Source: Dictyostelium discoideum
Taxonomy: Eukaryota
DNA length: 64,000 nt
NCBI GenBank assembly: GCA_000004695.1
Contig: CM000155.2
Coordinates: forward strand, 2,944,001-3,008,000
Direction: 5' to 3'
Position 1 is the first letter of the stretch; each line of letters starts with the position of its first letter. The position numbers and the translations under genes were made by a program. The notes beneath the pieces are model-generated. The model did no database searches. It had not been told where the DNA came from and saw only the letters and a list, made by a program, of their open reading frames with translations. This document shows positions 4,130 to 46,986 of this stretch, one piece after another.

Positions 4130-4796
4130 AAAAAAAAAAGTAAAAAATCAGGTGAAAAAAAAAGAAAAAAAAAAAAAAAACCCATTTTTATCTAACCAAA
4201 ACCATTTCATTACAAGTCAAATTTGATAATCTTTTAAATATGACAATATTATTTTATTTGAAAAAAAAAAAAAAAAAAAAAAAAAATTCACCCAAAATCG
4301 AATTAAAAAAAAAAAAAAAAAAAATTCAAACCAAATACCAAAGATTTCCCACCCCTAATTCTTAAAAAAAAAAAAAAAATTTAAAAAAAATTTTAAAAAT
4401 AAAAAACCCCTTTTAACATAAGGAATTTAAAATATTTAAATAAAAAAAACTTCCCCAAACTTATAACCCCCAATTTGCTCGACAATAATTAATTAATTAA
4501 TTAATTAAAATTTTTTTTTTTAATTTTTTTTTTTTTAATAATTAAAAAATAAAAAAAAAAAAACCCTTTTTTTTTTTTTTTTTTTTTTTTTGAAGGGAAA
4601 AATTAAAAATGAAAATTTAAAAATCCCGGGAAAAAATTTAAAAAAAAAAAAAAAATTTCCTTCCAAAAAAAAAAAATTAAAAATAAAAAATTCTGGGGGG
4701 GGGGAAAAAAAAAAACCCCCAAATTTTAAAAAAAAAAAGGGCCCCAAAATTTTAAAAAAAAAAAAAATTTTTTTTTTTTTTAAAAAAACCATAAAT
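4130..4796. repeat. Homopolymer-rich low-complexity block (A/T/C/G runs) abutting a gap; probable low-quality or unplaced sequence
   Basis: Strings such as cccggg, gggggggg, aaaaacccc that are atypical even for Dictyostelium intergenic DNA. Lies directly 5' of gap 4797-4896 and the TRE ORF. Confidence 0.5.
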
Positions 4797-4896
4797 NNNN
4801 NNNNNNNNNNNNNNNNNNNNNNNNNNNNNNNNNNNNNNNNNNNNNNNNNNNNNNNNNNNNNNNNNNNNNNNNNNNNNNNNNNNNNNNNNNNNNNNN
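4797..4896. other. Assembly gap (100 N)
   Basis: Run of N. Confidence 1.
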
Positions 4897-6768
4897 CAAA
4901 AATTGAAATTAATGGTAGTACTACTATACCCTTTGAGATCAAAAGAGGAGTTAAACAAGGAGATCCACTATCACCCACCCTGTTCGTCCTTGTAATAGAG
5001 GCTTTAGCTAGAAAAATTTTACAAGATGACCGAATTACTGGCCTTCCTCTAAACAACAGCAACCACAGAGAGAAATTCCAAAGCTTTGCAGACGACTCGG
5101 CTTCAATGGTCCCAGACTCTCAACAACTTGAATTAGTACTACAACACTTCAATTCGTTTTGCAAAGCCACTTCCTCAAAACTAAACATCGACAAATCTTC
5201 ATCAATTCTTATAGGCAACCCAGACAATACCAACCAAAGAATTCCAATATCTACAAATCCAGAAAGATACTTGGGATACTTCTTCACAGGCAAAGGGATA
5301 ACAAGAAAAATGCCAGAAATATTAAACACAATAAGATCATCCTTAGTACTATGGAAAACCACTGACTCAACAATCAAAACCAAAACCAACATCCTCAAAG
5401 CATTCGCACTCTCTAAATTAACCTACTATTCATATGTAGAGAAATTTAAGGAAGAGGAATTAAACCAAATCAATAAATTAGTCGAATGGTTTTTATCGGC
5501 ACCAAACAACAAAAATGCTAGTGGATTTCAAGTTATTAATTTAATGAGAACCAAAAGAGCAAGATACCCACTAAAAGTAGGAGGCTGGAACATTTGGAAT
5601 ATAGAATTGAGACAACTGGCGCAGAAACTTTGGATCATAAACCAATTCATCCTAGCACTAGAAACCAAACAAACAAACTCATCTCATTACAAAAGCTGGG
5701 AATATCAGATCCAAAAAAACAAATTCACATCCAGATACCTAAAAGAAAACTTAGACGAATGGAACAAAATAAGAATAAAAAAAGCAATCTTCAACAATAA
5801 TCTCACATCCATAAAAAACGAAAATGGACAACCACTTTCACTGGCAGAATGGTATACCACAATTCAAGACCAAAATCCAACCATCCCTAAAACGGAATTC
5901 CAATCATCTCTAAACTTAAGAGGCTACAGCTATAATCAACTCTTCAACAACATACTGAAGATAAAAGACCATAAAACAAGAGACACAATGTTTAGATTCC
6001 ATGCCAGATGCCTTCCAATAAACTACCTTCACAACAAACAATGCCCACTCTGCAAAGAAGATATGAGCAAAGACCCATACGGTCACCTGTTCTTCTCATG
6101 CAAGAAAACAAAACAATTCATAAAAATAAATAAACTCAAAAATTTCATCTATATTACCACAGGCAAAGGTAAAAACTGGCACCATACAAGAATTAGGCAA
6201 AATAACAATTTCATTAATAGAATAACTCCAAAATTATCACCGACAGCCAAAAAAGATCAAGAAGTGAATGCAGATTACGCCAACCACAGATTCCACAAAG
6301 AATACTTTGAATGGAACTATAAAGCAATAGACTATGATCTAACCAGATCATTCGCATATAGAAACCTAATGGCCCTTATCCTCCACAACATTTGGATTTG
6401 GATTTGCAATCAAATATACAGTGAAGATCCTTTAACAGATGAATCACTATCATACAGCTCCCTTCTAAAGAAATGGCACAAATTGGCCACTCTAGAATAC
6501 ATCAAAAAAGCAAAAGATCTGAAAAACTTATCAGCAAAAGACCATAATAACTTCAAAGATCCTAAGATCCTTCTCACTTCAACGATCAAGCTAAGAAAAA
6601 CAAAAGCTAATTACTATTGTATTCCAGAATCATCTCTCCCAAATATTATATCTTTTGATCAATTCATATGATTAAAATAACCCTTCAGCTTAAATGATAA
6701 GCCTTTAAATAAATATTAAATAAAACTCGTATTAACACAGATGGACATATATCAATCTTGTTAATCCA

Positions 6769-9823: not shown

Positions 9824-10418
9824 TGGATTAACAAGATTGATATATGTCCATCTGTGTTAATACGAGTTTTATTTAATATTTATTTAAAGGCTTATCATTT
9901 AAGCTGAAGGGTTATTTTAATCATATGAATTGATCAAAAGATATAATATTTGGGAGAGATGATTCTGGAATACAATAGTAATTAGCTGTTGTTTTTCTTA
10001 TCTTGATCGTTGAAGTGAGAAGGATCTTAGGATCTTTGAAGTTATTATGGTCTTTTGCTGATAAGTTTTTCAGATCTTTTGCTTTTTTGATGTATTCTAG
10101 AGTGGCCAATTTGTGCCATTTCTTTAGAAGGGAGCTGTATGATAGTGATTCATCTGTTAAAGGATCTTCACTGTATATTCAGAATTCCAATATCTACAAA
10201 TCCAGAAAGATACTTGGGATACTTCTTCACAGGCAAAGGGATAACAAGAAAAATACCAGAAATATTAAACACAATAAGATCATCCTTAGTACTATGGAAA
10301 ACCACTGACTCAACAATCAAAACCAAAACCAACATCCTCAAAGCATTCGCACTCTCTAAATTAACCTACTATTCATATGTAGTATATTGTATTTCAGAAC
10401 GGAAAAATATAACTTTGC
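9778..10418 (-). mobile_element. Rearranged 5'-truncated TRE retrotransposon fragment (inverted 3' end with poly(A) joined to a forward internal segment), inserted downstream of tRNA-Lys
   Basis: 9778-9818 is a 41-nt T run, which is poly(A) on the minus strand. 9821-10178 is the reverse complement of element positions 6415-6773. 10180-10382 is in forward orientation and matches 5222-5440. 10383-10400 is an inverted copy of the left-flank target GTTCTGAAATACAATATA. The second duplicate copy lacks all of this. Confidence 0.8.
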
Positions 10419-10488
10419 AGGTTAGTTTTCTTAATTTTATTATTTGTATGGTAAAGTCATTTGGGTCCTTTTACAATATCTTCATAGC

Positions 10489-10500
10489 CGGAGTCGAACA
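10489..10500 (-). promoter_or_regulatory. Downstream B-box-like element (ex-B box) of tRNA-Lys copy 1
   Basis: Minus-strand TGTTCGACTCC lies ~35 bp 3' of the tRNA end and matches the GGTTCGANTCC B-box consensus, as described for Dictyostelium tRNA genes. Confidence 0.6.
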
Positions 10501-10532
10501 TGCGATCTCAACTATACTCAGTAAAAATAATT

Positions 10533-10605
10533 CGCCCAACGGGGGGCTCGAACCCCCGACCACCAGATTAAGAGTCTGGCGCTCTACCGACTGAGCTAGC
10601 CGGGC
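10533..10605 (-). tRNA. tRNA-Lys (anticodon CUU)
   Basis: Minus strand reads GCCCGGCTAGCTCAGTCGGTAGAGCGCCAGACTCTTAATCTGGTGGTCGGGGGTTCGAGCCCCCCGTTGGGCG. This gives a cloverleaf with A box TAGCTCAGTCGG, a CTT anticodon loop, B box GGTTCGAGCC, and a T run just 3' of the gene. It is near-identical to metazoan tRNA-Lys-CTT. Confidence 0.92.
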
Positions 10606-11898
10606 ATTTTTATGAATTTTCAATTAAAATACTGGTATACGTAATAAATTTACTCCAATTGAAAAAAGATGAGTTTACAGGTGAAGCAATTTATTTTATC
10701 CAAAAAAAAAAGGTCAAATAATTATCAATTTAATACACAAAAAATAAATAGTTTATTGTTGTCTCTTTCTTTTGAAATTAATAAAATATTTTAATTTAAG
10801 AGTTTTTATTTCAGATTTTTTGTTCAATTGCACAGAACAGAGATTTAAAATTGTGGTGTGGCAAATAAAAAAAAAAATTATGAGAAAATAGATTATAATA
10901 GCTTTTATTAAATTACACTTATTTATACATTGATATTTAAATAGAAAATCGATTTAATTTTAATTTTATGAGAATAATAATTTCAAATAACTAATCCTCC
11001 ATTTGGTTTTTGAAAAACTTCTAAATGTACAGAGTTTGAAGTGGGCTGAGTATTTAAATTTACAACACTTTTTGATTGATCTTTTTTTGTATTGATAAAA
11101 CTTGTTGTTTTAACTGATTTATTTTTTGCCAAACAATCTAACAAATTTTTAAATCAATATGTTAGAAAATAAATAAAATAAATTTTTGAAAAAAATAACT
11201 TAATTAGTTTACACACATACCGTAAATCATTTTTTAATAAATTTTTTAAATAAATAAAAAAATAAATAAATTATATAAATAAAATAAAATATAATAAAAT
11301 AAAATAAATAATTAAAAAACTAGTTTAATAAATAAATATTTTTTAAAAAATAGATTAAAAAAATTGTAAATAAATTTTTAAAAAATGAATAAAAAAAAAA
11401 AACAGAAAATTGAATTTAAATATTTTATTCTTTTATTTTTGTATTTTTTTAATTTTATAATTTTTTTTAATTGTTTATTTTATAAAATAATGAAAATATT
11501 AATTTAATATCCATATTTGTACTTTAAGATTATTATTTATAAATCTTGTGATTTTGTTTATTTAAATAATTATTTCAAAGAATTATAATATGAGTTTTTA
11601 AAATTAAGGCAATTATAGTACACTTTTACATATAATTATACAATAAATATTTTAATTTTTTATTTTAAAAAAAAAAAATATTTAAAAATAAATTAAAAAA
11701 AAAAAATAACCACTCTTACTATTTGTTTTTATTATAATAATAATCGAATTTTATTAATTTTGTTTTTATTTTAATATTTTGCTCTATATTGAATTTCAAA
11801 TTCCATACGTCCTTCATTGTTTTTTTTTTTTTACACAGAATAATAACTGATTAAGATTTTTTTTGTTTATTATTTTTAAAAAAAAAAAAAAGAAACAA

Positions 11899-12963: not shown

Positions 12964-12995
12964 TGCGATCTCAACTATACTCAGTAAAAATAATT

Positions 12996-13068
12996 CGCCC
13001 AACGGGGGGCTCGAACCCCCGACCACCAGATTAAGAGTCTGGCGCTCTACCGACTGAGCTAGCCGGGC
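12996..13068 (-). tRNA. tRNA-Lys (anticodon CUU), duplicate copy
   Basis: Sequence identical to 10533-10605. Confidence 0.92.
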
Positions 13069-14399
13069 ATTTTTATGAATTTTCAATTAAAATACTGGTA
13101 TACGTAATAAATTTACTCCAATTGAAAAAAGATGAGTTTACAGGTGAAGCAATTTATTTTATCCAAAAAAAAAAGGTCAAATAATTATCAATTTAATACA
13201 CAAAAAATAAATAGTTTATTGTTGTCTCTTTCTTTTGAAATTAATAAAATATTTTAATTTAAGAGTTTTTATTTCAGATTTTTTGTTCAATTGCACAGAA
13301 CAGAGATTTAAAATTGTGGTGTGGCAAATAAAAAAAAAAATTATGAGAAAATAGATTATAATAGCTTTTATTAAATTACACTTATTTATACATTGATATT
13401 TAAATAGAAAATCGATTTAATTTTAATTTTATGAGAATAATAATTTCAAATAACTAATCCTCCATTTGGTTTTTGAAAAACTTCTAAATGTACAGAGTTT
13501 GAAGTGGGCTGAGTATTTAAATTTACAACACTTTTTGATTGATCTTTTTTTGTATTGATAAAACTTGTTGTTTTAACTGATTTATTTTTTGCCAAACAAT
13601 CTAACAAATTTTTAAATCAATATGTTAGAAAATAAATAAAATAAATTTTTGAAAAAAATAACTTAATTAGTTTACACACATACCGTAAATCATTTTTTAA
13701 TAAATTTTTTAAATAAATAAAAAAATAAATAAATTATATAAATAAAATAAAATATAATAAAATAAAATAAATAATTAAAAAACTAGTTTAATAAATAAAT
13801 ATTTTTTAAAAAATAGATTAAAAAAATTGTAAATAAATTTTTAAAAAATGAATAAAAAAAAAAAACAGAAAATTGAATTTAAATATTTTATTCTTTTATT
13901 TTTGTATTTTTTTAATTTTATAATTTTTTTTAATTGTTTATTTTATAAAATAATGAAAATATTAATTTAATATCCATATTTGTACTTTAAGATTATTATT
14001 TATAAATCTTGTGATTTTGTTTATTTAAATAATTATTTCAAAGAATTATAATATGAGTTTTTAAAATTAAGGCAATTATAGTACACTTTTACATATAATT
14101 ATACAATAAATATTTTAATTTTTTATTTTAAAAAAAAAAAATATTTAAAAATAAATTAAAAAAAAAAAATAACCACTCTTACTATTTGTTTTTATTATAA
14201 TAATAATCGAATTTTATTAATTTTGTTTTTATTTTAATATTTTGCTCTATATTGAATTTCAAATTCCATACGTCCTTCATTGTTTTTTTTTTTTTACACA
14301 GAATAATAACTGATTAAGATTTTTTTTGTTTATTATTTTTAAAAAAAAAAAAAAGAAACAAGTGGAGATTAAATATATTTTGTGTATTAACACTTTTAA

Positions 14400-37198: not shown

Positions 37199-37804
37199 GA
37201 TATGTTATAAATAATTTAAACTATAATAGTTATCGTCCTAATAAACGTATATTTAATAAAAGTATAGTTTAACAAATCATTAGGAAGTAAGTTCTCTTTT
37301 AAATAAATTAATTTTTTCAAAAATAAATAAATAAAAAATAAATGATTTTTACTAATTTTTTTTTTTTTTTTATATTATACCATGTTTTGTTGGATCTGTT
37401 GCAGTAGATAGATCATTAAAAATATTATTTGATTCCACATGTGAAACTCATGCAATAGTGAGATTGAAATTGCAGGAGCATTAAAAAGAACTCATTGGGT
37501 TTATTTATTTATTTTTAGTTTTATTTTTATTTTTCTCAATAAAATTAGTATTCGTTGTTTGGTGGTTTTGGGAATAAAAAAAAAATAAAAAAAATAAAAA
37601 TAAAATATTAAAAACACCCTTTTTTTATTTTTTATTTATTTTTTTTTTTTTTAATTTAAATTTTTTTTACCCTCATTAAAAATAAAAAAAAAAAAAAAAA
37701 TTTGCATGTTTGGTTTTTTTTTTTTTTTGAAACCACTTGAATAAAAATCTTAACATAATAAAAATATATAGTGTTTTGATAGAAAAAAATCAAAAAACCA
37801 TACT

Positions 37805-39837
37805 ATGGAGACGGTATCATTAGTACCGTTGGAAGGTCTTGATGATTTAAGTGCACAATCAGCAGCAATCAAAAAGATTGAACAAAATTTCTCAAATATA
37901 GATAGTTTAGCATCAGTAACAAATCATAAAATATCATTAATTCAACAAAAGAAAACAATAGAAGCTCAAATTAAAAATGAAGTACATGTATGTACTAATT
38001 TAAATAAACAATTAATTAATTTTTATTTATTAATTTTAATTTTATTATAATTTATTACATATGACTAGTCAGAATTAGAAAAATCAAAAAAAGGTTTAGA
38101 AACATTATATAAATCATATAATAGAATTAATAGAATGGATGAATCATTTTCAGATACAGTTGAATTATGTAGTGAAACATCGAATTTGATTGGACATTAT
38201 CAATTAATTAAAAAAGTGAATACGGTTAGAGTGAATTTAATTAATATTTTAAAAGAAGTTGATAGATTATTAACAATACCAGAGAAAGCAGCAGAGATTG
38301 AGCAATTGTTAAGCGATGATTTAAATCTCTTAGAGATTCATAGTAAACTTAGAGAATTGGAAAGATTACATCAAAAAGCATTGAAACAATTTGAATCCAA
38401 TTTCGAAGAATTAGAAGCTATCAAAGAGATGTTTTCATCAGTACCTGAATTAAGTCACAGATTTGAAAATAAAATTTGGAATATCGTTAGTAATTCAATC
38501 GATATCGCTCAAATCAAACCTGCAGTATTAGTAAAAGTTGCTCAAATTATTGAACGTGAAAAATTACATGAACAAAAACAAAAAGAAAAGAAATCTCAAA
38601 ATTCTTTAATTTCAAGTGAAGGTATACATGATGATGATGATGATGATGATGATACTGAGGTTAATTTAAATAATTCAAATAAACAACAAAATAATGAAAA
38701 TGAAAATAGTAGTAGTAATAATAATAATAATTATGATATTAATAATGAAGATGAGGGATATGATAGAAATCGTAGTAATTATGGTGATAGATTTTTAGAA
38801 GTTTTAATTCAATCGATTTCAGGTAAATTTGAACCAATGTTTTTAAATTCACATAATGATTTAGTTCAAACATTAAAAGATGTAAATAAAATGGTTGATG
38901 AGTTGTTTATAGTTATGGATATTGTCCAAGAGTGTTACCCACCTTCATATGATTTATTCAATTTTTATGTTGATCAATATCATACTAAATTTTATTCATT
39001 ATTTGGTAGTTTTTCAAATTTAATGGAATCATCACATGTGAATAATAATTATCAAGTGGTTGTAACAAAGAATATACCATCTGCACATATTTTAATGTTG
39101 GTTGAATGGGTTGTAAAGAATTATAGTAGAGATTTGTCACGTTTGGGTATTCAGGATATTTCACCACCATTATTGGATTCATTAGATCCGTTAATTAAAA
39201 TTTATAAAATGCATATCAAACAATTGATGAGAGAATGGTGTGATAATATCATAAATAATGATAACCAAAATAAACCAGAGGTTGTGGATGGCCAATATTG
39301 CTCATTGGCACCCATTCAATTATTCGAGTCGGTCGCATCACAATTGGATATTGCTGCCGCTACAAAGTGCCAGAAATTGGTGGTGGGTGTGATGGAGGAG
39401 GTTGTGTCGGCTTTAATGTATTTCCAAGTCCAATCAATCACTTTATTACAAGAACGTAATCATGAGATTAAATTGGAGAATGTGATAGCCTATGTAAATA
39501 ATAACAGTAAATGCTATGACCATACCCAAACGATCGTTGATAAAGTTTCAAATATTTTAGATTCTGAACATATGGGTTATTTAGATTTCGATCCTGTACT
39601 AGAGGGTTTTTTAAATGTTTCAAAAGTTGCAACTCAAGCAATCTCTTCTGTGATCTTTCGTGATCTTGATGAATGTATTCATAAATTTTATACAGTTGAA
39701 TGGTATCAAGAGGATTTAATGCAACCAATCATTAATACATTTGAAGATTATGTTACAAATGATATTCAAAAATATATTTTAGAAAATTATTTAAAAAGAT
39801 TAGCTTTATTATTATTAGATACATTAATTGAACAGTA

Positions 39838-39871
<34 letters not shown>

Positions 39872-40324
39872 AATAATAAATAATAAATACTAATTAGTGC
39901 ATTTTAAAATTAAAATTTTAGATTATTAGCTCAATTAATTGGTGGTAAAAATAAATTTAATGAAAATACTTATAAAATATTAAGTAATGATTGTGATAAA
40001 TTATTAGATTTCTTTAAAAAATATCTTAGATTATCAGTTGTAACAGCAAAAGTTCAAATTTTGGAAGATTTTAAACAAATGATTACTTCTTCAATTGATA
40101 TGGTACCAGTTTATTTCCGTTCTGTAATTAATTTCCATAAAGATATAAATGAAAGAGTGGTTGAATTAGTACTCTATCAAAGAACTGATATTAGTAAATC
40201 TGAAATCACTGAAGTTTTAGGCCAAATTAAAACAATCGTTGAAACTGTTCATACTGATCCCACCAATCCTCCAACTGGTATATTCTCTCGTATGAATATT
40301 TACCAACGTGGTTGGTTTAGTTAA
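37805..40324 (+). CDS. exoc3: Exocyst complex component Sec6/EXOC3; 3 exons 37805..~37987, 38069..39834, 39922..40324 (783 aa)
   Basis: [30 protein letters not shown] matches EXOC3 [46 protein letters not shown] matches LMVQCFPPHYEIF. Donors are GTATGT and CA|GTAAGT, and acceptors are CTAG and TTTTAG. Summed exons are 2352 nt and in frame. Confidence 0.85.
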
Positions 40325-40390
40325 AATAAATAAAATAAAATAAAATAAATAAATATAATAAAATAAATATAATAAAATAAATAAAATAAG

Positions 40391-40452
<62 letters not shown>
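40391..40452. repeat. (AAAT)n tetranucleotide microsatellite
   Basis: ~15 tandem AAAT/TAAA units in the 3' flank of exoc3. Confidence 0.9.
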
Positions 40453-40454
<2 letters not shown>

Positions 40455-40589
40455 AACGTTATTATTTTTTTTATTTTTTTTTTCTTAAATTTTTATAACT
40501 GAATTTTTTTTTTTTTTTTTTTTTGTCAATCAAAATATGAATATTTTTTTTTTTAATTTTATTTTTGATTTTATTTTTTTTTTTAAAAA

Positions 40590-41081
40590 ATGCAAGAAAA
40601 ACTACCATTTATTTTACGTGATCCAATACCAGGTGATATGGGTATGGTTGTTTATCAAAATGCTGTTTTTTATTCAAAAGAGTTTGGTTGGGATTCACGT
40701 TTTGAAGCTTTAGTTGCCAAAGTTGTTTCAGAGTATATAACAAATTTTGATGAAAAATATGAAAAATGTTGGATAGCAGAAAAAGATGGTAAAATGGTTG
40801 GTTCGATTTTTGTTGTTAAACAGGATGAAAATACAGCAAAACTTAGAATGTTATATGTTGATTCATCAGCTCGTTGTTTGGGAATTGCAAATAAATTAGT
40901 TGATGAATCTATAAAATTTTCAGAGTCAGTAGGTTATAAAAGAATCATTCTTTGGACAAATAGTATTTTAGTTGATGCAGCTAGAATTTATATAAAATTT
41001 GGTTTTAAACTTGAAAATGAAGAAAAACACACAATGTTTGGACCTGAACTCACTGGTCAAACTTATTCAAAAGATTTGTAA
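40590..41081 (+). CDS. GNAT-family N-acetyltransferase, intronless, 163 aa
   Basis: GNAT motifs: acetyl-CoA-binding-type RMLYVDSSARCLGIANKLVDESIKFSESVGYKRIILWTNSILVDAARIYIKFGFK. No introns. The overall architecture resembles bacterial small GNATs. Confidence 0.8.
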   Translation: MQEKLPFILRDPIPGDMGMVVYQNAVFYSKEFGWDSRFEALVAKVVSEYITNFDEKYEKCWIAEKDGKMVGSIFVVKQDENTAKLRMLYVDSSARCLGIANKLVDESIKFSESVGYKRIILWTNSILVDAARIYIKFGFKLENEEKHTMFGPELTGQTYSKDL

Positions 41082-41395
41082 TATAAAATATTATTATTAT
41101 TATTATTTTAAAATAATAATAGAGAATATTAAAAAAGGACCAGTGGAAAAAGAAAGACAAGAAAGAATTTTATTTGGTACCGTACAAAGAAAATAAAAGG
41201 AAGCACAACACATTTGAATAATATTTGTAAAATAAAATATAAAGATAATTTTTTAATTTAAAATCCCTATGGTTCTTTACTAAATTTTCTTCATAATCCC
41301 ATATTCCATTTTTATTATTCAATTGAGAATTATAATTTATCCGAGATTTATATTTCCAGCTTATGTCAGTATTTAAAAAAGAAATTCATATAAAT

Positions 41396-41468
41396 GCCCG
41401 GCTAGCTCAGTCGGTAGAGCGCCAGACTCTTAATCTGGTGGTCGGGGGTTCGAGCCCCCCGTTGGGCG
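41396..41468 (+). tRNA. tRNA-Lys (anticodon CUU), third copy
   Basis: Same 73-nt sequence as the two minus-strand copies. Followed by AAATTTTT. Confidence 0.92.
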
Positions 41469-41500
41469 AAATTTTTAACTCGATTCCTACAAGGATCGCA

Positions 41501-41514: not shown

Positions 41515-42170
41515 TAAATTTTCAGATTTGGGTTATAAAAATAATTGTATATGGAGATTAAAAAAATCCTCAATCCTCTCAAGCATAATGCTTAAGAAAA
41601 TAGACTTCCTACTTAACGATTATTCAAGGGAGCTGTCATCCAACCATAACTCTATTTCCTTCTCTCAACTCAACAGCTTACTAAACAAAATAAAACAACT
41701 ATACACAGAATTTCAAAAACAAAATGACTACAACAATAAGGCAAACATCAAAAATCTAATCTCCCTACTAGAGACAGAATTTAAAGACCAAGCCTTCGCA
41801 ACCCTTTCAGCAATAAATGAATCTAAAAAAAGAGAAGAACAACTTAAACAAGAATTGAACAACTATTGCGAAGAAACCTCACTCAAGTACATCTCCGCGA
41901 GAATCAAGAAAAGACACAATGATTTCACCATCAACGCAGTAAAAGATGCACAAGGTAGAACAATCAACAAACAGGAATTGATCGAAGAAGATTACGTAAA
42001 ATATTACTCAAATCTTTATGACTACAAAGAAGATGACGCACCATCTCATTATGAAATGTTGGAAAATTGGACAGTGACCAGGGACTCAACATGGGACAAC
42101 CTTGAAAATGAATTCACAACCCAAGGAGATCCCTAGAAGTAATAAAACCAATTGGAACCCCACACCAAAT
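41515..42170 (+). mobile_element. Start of a TRE-type non-LTR retrotransposon immediately downstream of tRNA-Lys (ORF ~41585..42136, then truncated by gap)
   Basis: The ORF (real ATG ~41585, MLKKIDFLLNDYSR...) contains a LINE-like segment ...RTINKQELIEEDYVKYYSNLYDYKEDD. Track ORF 41363.. reads through the tRNA, so its N-terminus is an artefact. Same position (downstream of tRNA-Lys, same orientation) as the fragment at 9778-10418. Confidence 0.65.
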
Positions 42171-42270
42171 NNNNNNNNNNNNNNNNNNNNNNNNNNNNNN
42201 NNNNNNNNNNNNNNNNNNNNNNNNNNNNNNNNNNNNNNNNNNNNNNNNNNNNNNNNNNNNNNNNNNNNNN
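42171..42270. other. Assembly gap (100 N)
   Basis: Run of N. Confidence 1.
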
Positions 42271-45502: not shown

Positions 45503-46067
45503 TTATTTTTTCATTAAACTTGGAATAATTGGTGATTTATAACCATTTTTAGAAAATGTAATTGGATAAAATGATTCTTCTAATTTATTTGAACCATATA
45601 TTTTATAACGACCAAAATGGAAATGTGGTTTTAAATTTGGATTAAATTCACTATCACCTGGGATGAAATGAATTGCAACTACCATACGACCTTTAAATGA
45701 TGATGGATTTGTATTTGAACCATGCCATAATTTACCATGGTGAATTGAACAACCACCTGCTTTAACAGTAACATAGTGAATTGGTAAATTATCAGTGGAT
45801 TCAATATCATTAAATTTTGCAGCATTTTGTAAACCTCTTAAATAATTCTTTGGATTATGAAATTCTTCATTTGAATTACTATCATTAATATCTGCTGGTA
45901 AATCTTTCCATTTATGACTACCCTCCACAAATTCAACTGTACCATTCTCTTTACTAACATCTGTCAATGCAATCCAAACTGTTATTACTTTTTTTGTAGC
46001 ACATTCAAAATATGGTAAATCTTTTATAATATTATAAAAATGTGTGAGTGTTTGTAAGATAAATTTT

Positions 46068-46104
<37 letters not shown>

Positions 46105-46542
46105 AAACATATAAATATTTATTTTTAAAAAAAAATTACCTTGGTGCATTCCAATTGGTTTTCCATTAACTGGTTTCCAAAAGATATCATCTTGTGCGAT
46201 ACGAACTGAGTCAGAACCCAATAACTCGCAAGCTAATTTTCCAATATTTTCATTAAGTACTAGTTGGGCTAATATTGAATCTGATTTCCAGCTATTTACC
46301 AACTCTCTTGTTAAGTCATTTGGTGAGAAATTTGGTCTCCATGTTACATCATCTGGTGTAATAGATTTATCAAAAATACCATTAAAACAATTTTCTGAAT
46401 GATTTTTTATTTTTTCAATATCTGATTGATTTGGTATAATATTATCTAGAACTAAAAATCCATTCTTTTCAAATGATTCTTTATCTTGTTTAGTTATATC
46501 CCTTACACTAATTTTTATTAATTCATTTTCATTTTCGTTCAT
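45503..46542 (-). CDS. Phytanoyl-CoA dioxygenase (PhyH) family Fe(II)/2-oxoglutarate oxygenase; 2 exons 46542..46140 and 46020..45503 (306 aa)
   Basis: Exon 1 ...GMHQ(G) with donor GTAATT. Exon 2 is DLPYFECATKKVITVWIALTDVSKENGTVEFVEGSHKW...HYVTVKAGGCSIHHGKLWHGS, giving His..Asp..His iron ligands in PhyH context. The real ATG is at 46542; the track start at 46560 is a TTG artefact. Confidence 0.8.
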
Positions 46543-46986
46543 TTTTTTTTTTTTTAACAATGTGTTTTGTGTGTGAAAATATGTTATATAATAATAATAA
46601 TAATAATTGTTTTTTTTTTTTTTTTTTTAATTTTTTTTCTCAAAAATTGATTTAAAATAAAAAATAAAAAATAAAAAAAAAATAATATAATATGTGTGTT
46701 TTATTTGAATTTTTTTATTTTTTTTATTTTTAATTTTACCCCACTTTGGTCATTAATATTAATTATTCCTATATATTAAAAATATTTATAATATTTATAA
46801 TAATTTTTTTTTTGTTTTTAATTTTAATTATTTCTATTCAAAAATTAATTTTATAAATATTCTTACATTTTGACAAAATTATAATAAAAATGTAAATATT
46901 TCAAAGATAAAATTCTTAAAGAGATTTTAAAAAAAAAAAAAATAATAATAAATTAAATTAAATAATTTTATCTATAATTATAATTT

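Follow-up and report, generated by a model that had tools for sequence, protein, structure and literature searches.

Dictyostelium is a model for interactions between amoebae and bacteria, including the farming of Paraburkholderia symbionts. The 2005 work of Eichinger is said to be one source of genes of bacterial origin in D. discoideum. The accepted list of such genes is a published table of 16, including ppk1, thyA, iptA, pscA, colA, and capA/B (Sucgang 2011 Table 2, PMC3188802); the table contains no GNAT acetyltransferase, and DDB_G0293514, the gene described here, is absent from it. Laterally acquired bacterial GNATs have also been described in Acanthamoeba castellanii, such as ACA1_384820 (PMC7281194). 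This is the same kind of event as that proposed below, namely the capture of a small bacterial GNAT by a bacterivorous amoebozoan, although the Acanthamoeba protein belongs to a different subfamily, has no Dictyostelium homologue, and is ~30% identical to its closest prokaryotic matches.

DDB_G0293514 very probably came from proteobacteria and has become a domesticated, functional gene, whose product matches the C-terminal acetyltransferase domain of the bacterial MarR/GNAT proteins. It resembles the 16 genes of the table in being embedded among bacterial sequences and in having a D. purpureum orthologue, and differs from them in carrying a universal Pfam domain rather than one confined to bacteria, and in belonging to a subfamily that one fungal lineage also has. 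Judged by the criteria of Sucgang 2011, the gene is embedded among bacterial sequences in neighbor-joining (NJ) trees, has the composition of its host, is integrated into a chromosome, and has a D. purpureum orthologue; the criterion of absence from plants, animals, and fungi is broken by one fungal homologue, that of Lachancea dasiensis, among the best 120 named hits per search. The universal Pfam domain is probably the reason why the gene was missed by the published list. The initial annotation of this locus had proposed a plausible, unreported case of horizontal transfer, which agrees with the absence of the gene from the 16-gene table and with a search of the literature, in which no searchable paper was found for the gene or protein identifiers of DDB_G0293514. 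The bacterial origin of this gene is well supported, and the phenomenon of bacterial GNATs in amoebae is already known from Acanthamoeba.

The protein encoded by the open reading frame in the window (the whole 64-kb stretch of DNA that was analysed) is an exact match to XP_629107.1/EAL60692.1/UniProt Q54BP5 of D. discoideum AX4, which is annotated as a 'hypothetical protein', and the matching record resides on a 3.6-Mb contig (Table 1). It had been described from the outset as a single-exon GNAT of 163 residues, and the reading frame, the Pfam matches, and the alignment to bacterial homologues, which extends over residues ~6–163 with zero internal gaps, all bear this out. The gene models of D. 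citrinum (501 bp), D. purpureum (498 bp), and P. violaceum (498 bp) are likewise uninterrupted. Acetyltransf_1 (PF00583) is matched at E=5.5e-14, scoring 52.9 bits where the gathering cutoff is 20.7; Acetyltransf_7 and Acetyltransf_10 are matched as well (PF13508, 49.0 bits against a cutoff of 27; PF13673, 43.1 bits against a cutoff of 23.6). The profile, the fold, motif A, and the motif B tyrosine thus all place the protein in the GNAT superfamily (clan Acetyltrans). In a 27-sequence alignment, R95 of motif A is invariant and G98 is kept in at least 90% of sequences; position 100 is Ala in group-4 Dictyostelium and Gly in bacteria, and Ala still fits the motif A consensus. A130, Y134, and G138 of motif B are invariant in the same alignment, and Tyr134 stands where, as we take it, GNATs have their general-acid tyrosine, with the catalytic role that this position would imply. 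The beta4 segment is characteristic of the subfamily, with W61, A63, and E64 kept in at least 90% of sequences. D. discoideum strains vary at the N-terminus (window positions 40590–40610), where MQEKLPF and MQEKKLPF differ by a Lys indel and the protein length ranges over 162–164 residues; an S111A polymorphism is also found among strains, every copy is intact, and one gene model in another D. discoideum assembly has 218 residues.

Table 1. Features of the DDB_G0293514 locus, in window coordinates.
Feature	Position	Strand	Remarks
Exocyst Sec6 gene, upstream of GNAT	37800..40324	+	Pfam Sec6 E=4e-100; intron ~39839-39921
Sec6–GNAT intergenic spacer, 265 bp, stop codon to ATG	40325..40589	+	GC 0.042; putative promoter
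GNAT CDS	40590..41081	+	single exon, ATG to TAA, 163 aa
beta4 segment C60-W-I-A-E64	40767..40781	+	alignment; model strand 59-65
Motif A, predicted acetyl-CoA pyrophosphate-binding loop R95-C-L-G98-I-A100	40872..40889	+	consensus Q/R-x-x-G-x-G/A
Motif B helix A130-A-R-I-Y134-I-K-F-G138-F	40977..41006	+	alignment; model helix 128-136
tRNA-Lys(CTT)	41395..41469	+	ARAGORN; 313 bp past GNAT stop codon
5'-truncated non-LTR retroelement-like ORF fragment	41540..42170	+	GC3 0.395; TRE3-type position

In a word-indexed search, the dictyostelid matches came from other D. discoideum strains (99% identity), D. citrinum (89%), D. purpureum (80%), and P. violaceum (49%), and the remaining matches were bacterial or metagenomic, including Achromobacter xylosoxidans (61%), a MarR-family protein of Pseudomonas asiatica (57%), and Roseateles (54%). 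Among the best 120 named hits per search, the non-dictyostelid relatives with a named organism are all bacterial except for one yeast protein. Sequence searches with the 163-residue protein, a check that the initial annotation had proposed, place the closest non-dictyostelid relatives in the proteobacteria, with 55–62% identity over 96–100% of the query; the top identities are those of Achromobacter (61%), Paraburkholderia and Trinickia (59–61%), Pollutimonas (58%), Dyella (57%), and Pseudomonas (57%). The alternative outcome that it had named, a place within a conserved eukaryotic family such as NAT or SSAT, did not emerge, as the NAA/Nat, SSAT, and GNA1 families are all absent among the best 120 named hits of each of three large searches.

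The bacterial family to which these relatives belong is a family of regulator–enzyme fusions. A profile search returned 7998 clusters at E≤1e-20, mostly MarR+GNAT fusions of ~305 residues, against a handful of eukaryotic sequences. The best profile matches bear the NCBI name 'bifunctional helix-turn-helix transcriptional regulator/GNAT family N-acetyltransferase' and N-terminal MarR Pfam domains, and the fusion proteins are found in Paraburkholderia, Trinickia, Burkholderia, Achromobacter, Pollutimonas, Advenella, Janthinobacterium, Pseudoduganella, Dyella, Billgrantia, and Pseudomonas, with 54–61% identity to the amoeba protein; the family is mainly one of Burkholderiales, Pseudomonas, Dyella, and Billgrantia. 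When HMMER was run exhaustively over 1.8 billion representatives of clusters at 50% identity, 3870 matches were obtained; most of the top ones are ~310 residues long and are matched over residues ~150–310, so that the amoeba protein corresponds to the enzyme half of the bacterial fusion. DDB_G0293514 has no 50%-identity representative of its own and is therefore subsumed in a bacterial cluster.

The amoeba protein and the MarR/GNAT fusions are alike in their identity across the full domain, in a length free of insertions and deletions, and in the invariant residues W61, A63, E64, R95, G98, the LWTNS segment (121–125), and Y134, and the identity, the coverage, and the nesting in the NJ tree together place the domain within the bacterial MarR/GNAT clade. 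In contrast, the fusions have an N-terminal MarR winged helix that the amoeba protein lacks, as it starts 5–8 residues before the GNAT domain, and the codon use and amino-acid composition of the amoeba gene are fully eukaryotic and AT-biased. No MarR Pfam match was obtained in the DDB_G0293514 protein, which is a stand-alone derivative and is not itself bifunctional. A MarR-coding remnant was sought in the 265 bp upstream of the gene and none was found, this spacer being non-coding. Stand-alone bacterial GNATs also exist, in some Burkholderiales; examples of such forms are those of Pollutimonas bauzanensis (160 residues) and Achromobacter (172–188 residues). The Achromobacter proteins still begin with the last MarR helix (LSEPAQAQLVNAMNDIQNLLG), and their sequences suggest that these forms were derived from the fusion by truncation, or that their start sites have been mis-called.

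The gene is fully integrated into its present host. The coding sequence has a GC content of 0.29 and a GC3 of 0.12, the GC3 of neighbouring host ORFs being 0.07–0.19 and that of bacterial homologues 0.70–0.77, and the FYMINK fraction of the protein, at 0.36, exceeds the bacterial mean of 0.20. The comparison of GC3 and codon usage with neighbouring genes, which had been put forward as a check on transfer, finds the gene indistinguishable from them; this speaks against contamination and cannot flag an old transfer, as the gene is old and fully adapted to the host, which makes the composition test uninformative. The YL1–Sec6–GNAT–tRNA-Lys block is colinear with D. citrinum, five assemblies of D. 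discoideum or cf. discoideum contain the gene, and a dN/dS of 0.05–0.19 in comparisons between D. discoideum, D. citrinum, and D. purpureum shows that it is maintained by purifying selection. The flanks of the D. purpureum and P. violaceum genes share nothing else with the window, so that, with no synteny in D. purpureum, orthology rests on the tree; an 868-residue gene that precedes the orthologue in D. purpureum was considered as Sec6 and rejected by tblastn and tblastx, leaving the GNAT as the only shared gene. A second, unrelated GNAT of 171 residues lies tail-to-tail with the D. purpureum orthologue at a distance of 104 bp (GL871006.1, L001:6602-7117, minus strand). It matches ArsN1b (E=6.7e-37, NCBIfam, below the curated cutoff) and Pfam Acetyltransf_4, resembles bacterial arsinothricin/phosphinothricin N-acetyltransferases, and has no counterpart in the window or at the D. 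citrinum locus.

Phylogenetic placement was examined in NJ trees of 171 and 274 sequences (100 bootstraps, 163 trimmed columns). The group-4 Dictyostelium sequences are monophyletic in 100% of bootstraps and nest among bacterial sequences, and seventeen derived states are fixed in, and common to, all of them. The acquisition predates the split of D. discoideum and D. purpureum and the radiation of group 4. As no bacterial sister of group 4 is well supported, the donor group, which we infer from the sequences to lie among the proteobacteria, is only loosely defined. After the transfer, the gene would have acquired the base composition of the host, an AT-rich promoter, and the AAAATG start context, and would have remained under purifying selection since.

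The bacterial relatives, the size of their family, the nesting in the tree, and the lack of a conserved eukaryotic GNAT family among the named hits thus support the view of the initial annotation that a bacterial-type GNAT was acquired horizontally. Vertical descent of an ancient eukaryotic GNAT, followed by loss from nearly all other eukaryotes, could draw on the universality of GNATs and on the presence of the subfamily in three eukaryotic lineages, but is very improbable, since the eukaryotic copies are 55–66% identical to proteobacterial proteins and only 47–56% identical to one another, and the yeast protein shares 71% identity with that of Pollutimonas. No eukaryotic clade is supported in the trees; group 4 and P. 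violaceum never pair, and Lachancea joins group 4 at just 44% bootstrap. The alphaproteobacterial Devosia homologues are only 42–43% identical to the amoeba protein, which argues against a mitochondrial route. Contamination or an assembly artefact, for which the five 100-N assembly gaps in the window might be cited, is hardly credible for a coding sequence with 29% GC, a GC3 of 0.12, and a host-like amino-acid bias. The gene lies between Sec6 and a tRNA gene on a chromosome of 3.6 Mb, over 1 kb from any assembly gap, and several assemblies and species have yielded it independently. A transfer in the opposite direction, from amoeba to bacteria, is equally hard to credit; the bacterial family is very large, spans many taxa, and consists mostly of MarR fusions, as fits a bacterial origin.

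Within this bacterial origin of the gene, the number of transfers is less firmly settled. Both P. violaceum and group 4 are dictyostelids, and group 4 has no closer outgroup. A single acquisition in their common ancestor, with fast divergence in both lines thereafter, would account for S92, K146, and S160, which group 4 and P. violaceum have in common and which are rare in bacteria, and the first NJ tree joins group 4 to P. violaceum plus Pseudomonas, with 26% support; moreover, pairwise identities alone cannot tell the two histories apart, nor does the count of signature residues for one as opposed to two dictyostelid acquisitions, at 4 against 3. Such a history nevertheless appears rather unlikely. 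Monophyly of the dictyostelids receives 0–2% NJ bootstrap, and the P. violaceum protein joins the Pseudomonas asiatica MarR-GNAT protein (a pair with 93% support, within a 14-member clade that includes metagenome sequences and has 69%), being 63–66% identical to the P. asiatica and metagenome sequences and 47–51% identical to group 4. A four-cluster distance test places P. violaceum with the bacterial clade in 93–97% of 500 bootstraps and supports dictyostelid monophyly in 1–6%, with Kimura, gamma, and Dayhoff-6 distances alike, the test being a distance-only one on 163 sites with a bacterial cluster chosen after the tree had been seen. The shared Ser and Lys states are of a kind favoured by AT bias, and there is no shared synteny between the P. 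violaceum and D. discoideum loci. On these sequence comparisons, the P. violaceum copy was probably acquired separately from that of group 4.

The third eukaryotic copy is that of the yeast Lachancea dasiensis, a 171-residue member of the subfamily (LT598457.1, L015:6001-6516) encoded within a 1.58-Mb chromosome. It lies between SPG4 and a WD40 gene, is 71% identical to the Pollutimonas protein, and has a GC3 of 0.59, which marks it, by all appearances, as the product of a bacterial transfer of its own and of later date; a search of the literature on horizontal transfer of Lachancea acetyltransferases found nothing specific. The DNA-binding half is missing in all three eukaryotic copies. The chances seem to us evenly balanced that eukaryotes living among soil or plant bacteria took up this MarR-associated GNAT domain independently on three or more occasions, namely in the group-4 ancestor, in P. 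violaceum, and in L. dasiensis, and the attribution of a Pseudomonas-like donor to P. violaceum and of an Alcaligenaceae-like donor to L. dasiensis, which belongs to this repeated-capture reading, could go either way in the same measure.

The surroundings of the gene had also been drawn upon as evidence of transfer. The intron-bearing Sec6 gene upstream places the GNAT in a eukaryotic chromosome. The claim that introns are present in nearly all other genes of the window goes too far, as several long uninterrupted ORFs lie nearby, including those of YL1 (508 residues), Vps52 (876 residues), and a coiled-coil protein (1744 residues), and the D. citrinum YL1 model has no intron either (1434 bp, 477 residues). 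Short Dictyostelium genes are commonly intronless, and the single-exon structure is therefore weak evidence of horizontal transfer. The Sec6–GNAT spacer contains a (TAAA)n microsatellite, with positions 40325–40460 consisting almost wholly of (TAAA)n/(AAATAAAT)n repeats, and the start codon of the GNAT lies in the context AAAAAATG (AAAATG).

The position beside a tRNA-Lys gene and a retroelement site was correctly noted, with the tRNA at 313 bp and a TRE3-type fragment beyond it, but it has no bearing on the acquisition of the gene. TRE3 elements integrate on the downstream side of tRNA genes, at a distance of ~100 bp, and a TRE is present at 61% of the tRNA genes of D. discoideum (PMC5006619). 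A B-box-like sequence, GATCGCAAGTTCGATTC, is found downstream of the tRNA-Lys gene, and the retroelement-like fragment starts ~70–120 bp past the tRNA and ends in a 100-N gap (42171–42270). The fragment is unique within the window and is separated from the GNAT by the tRNA; it has no Pfam match, and its position makes it a putative TRE element. The tRNA-Lys also lies downstream of the GNAT in D. citrinum, a very close relative. No tRNA was found within 6 kb on either side of the D. purpureum gene, nor around that of P. violaceum, in the 6 kb downstream or the 1.3 kb that separate the gene from the contig end upstream. As the tRNA is missing at both of these loci and TRE elements target tRNA genes, the adjacency is incidental, and the retroelement is present because the tRNA is, on the side of the tRNA away from the GNAT.

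Two more tRNA-Lys(CTT) genes in the window, at 10532–10606 and 12995–13069 on the minus strand, are identical to the one at 41395, and the identity of their flanks (120 bp upstream and ~115 bp downstream) points to a local segmental duplication; non-LTR reverse-transcriptase fragments (4590–6671 and 10139–10594) and 100-N gaps (2749, 4797, 11899, and 16784) are found around the duplicated copies. A PhyH (phytanoyl-CoA dioxygenase-like) gene at 45503–46560 on the minus strand comprises two 154-residue ORFs, presumably divided by an intron or a frame change. Finally, ppk1 (DDB_G0293524) was considered as a neighbour in a cluster of transferred genes and rejected, no PP_kinase ORF being present in the 64-kb window; ppk1 is a textbook gene of bacterial origin, its identifier is ten units away from DDB_G0293514, and it may lie nearby on chromosome 6.

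An AlphaFold (AF2) model built from the 27-sequence alignment has a pLDDT of 93.7 and a pTM of 0.88 and shows the standard mixed alpha/beta GNAT fold. Foldseek returned 782 matches in the PDB at E≤0.001, of which the best 50 are all GNAT acetyltransferases, with TM values of 0.64–0.80. SpeG, PaiA, the phosphinothricin acetyltransferases (PAT/BAR), RimI, and HP0935 share the fold of the amoeba protein (TM 0.7–0.8) and its cofactor-binding motifs, whereas their sequence identity to it is just 14–22%, and the best PDB sequence match has E=2e-4. The PDB matches are thus generic to GNATs, and no substrate can be transferred by homology. The sequence motifs and the model suggest that DDB_G0293514 performs acetyl-CoA-dependent N-acetylation, in which the R95-x-x-G98-x-A100 loop would bind acetyl-CoA, the acetyl group would be passed to a primary amine of the acceptor, and Tyr134 would protonate the leaving CoA thiolate.

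Our best guess for the acceptor is a small bacterial metabolite; it may be a metabolite or toxin met during bacterivory, in which case the role of the enzyme would be detoxification. Acetylation of proteins, at lysines or the N-terminus, or of an endogenous metabolite such as a polyamine is somewhat less probable, though a serious contender. Two polyamine acetyltransferases, SpeG and PaiA, are indeed among the fold neighbours, as are RimI and HP0935, the latter a protein acetyltransferase, and the best NCBIfam match is to RimI, a weak one at 33 bits, well below the cutoff. However, the fold matches are generic (14–22% identity), phosphinothricin and antibiotic acetyltransferases match equally well, and the signals for polyamine acetyltransferases are likewise generic (NCBIfam spermidine N1-acetyltransferase, E=0.012; SpeG fold matches at 17–19% identity). 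These matches favour none of the options over the others. As for the bacterial proteins, the GNAT domain could, when fused to a DNA-binding domain, be a ligand sensor instead of a detoxifying enzyme. A conserved operon was sought around the homologues in Pseudomonas and Devosia and none was found. The Pseudomonas neighbourhood contains an AraC regulator, a glyoxalase-family protein, and DUF1348, and that of Devosia an M17 peptidase and a dehydrogenase, so that neighbourhoods that differ between the genera give no hint of function. We know of no member of the bacterial MarR/GNAT family with a defined substrate, and a search of the literature on MarR-GNAT function found no paper defining one.

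The accepted list of 16 bacterial-origin genes in D. discoideum is thus incomplete, and its filter misses genes with universal domains. DDB_G0293514 is a candidate for an enzyme of defence or detoxification, and its nearest relatives are those of Burkholderiales and Pseudomonas, bacteria that amoebae both eat and host. If the repeated capture of the domain is untrue, what remains is an ordinary hypothetical gene that is already annotated. If it is true, it would point to a portable and strongly selectable benefit, such as the inactivation of a common proteobacterial toxin, and would provide a handle on the substrate of a bacterial family with more than 8000 clusters, for which the easily manipulated Dictyostelium would offer a practical route.
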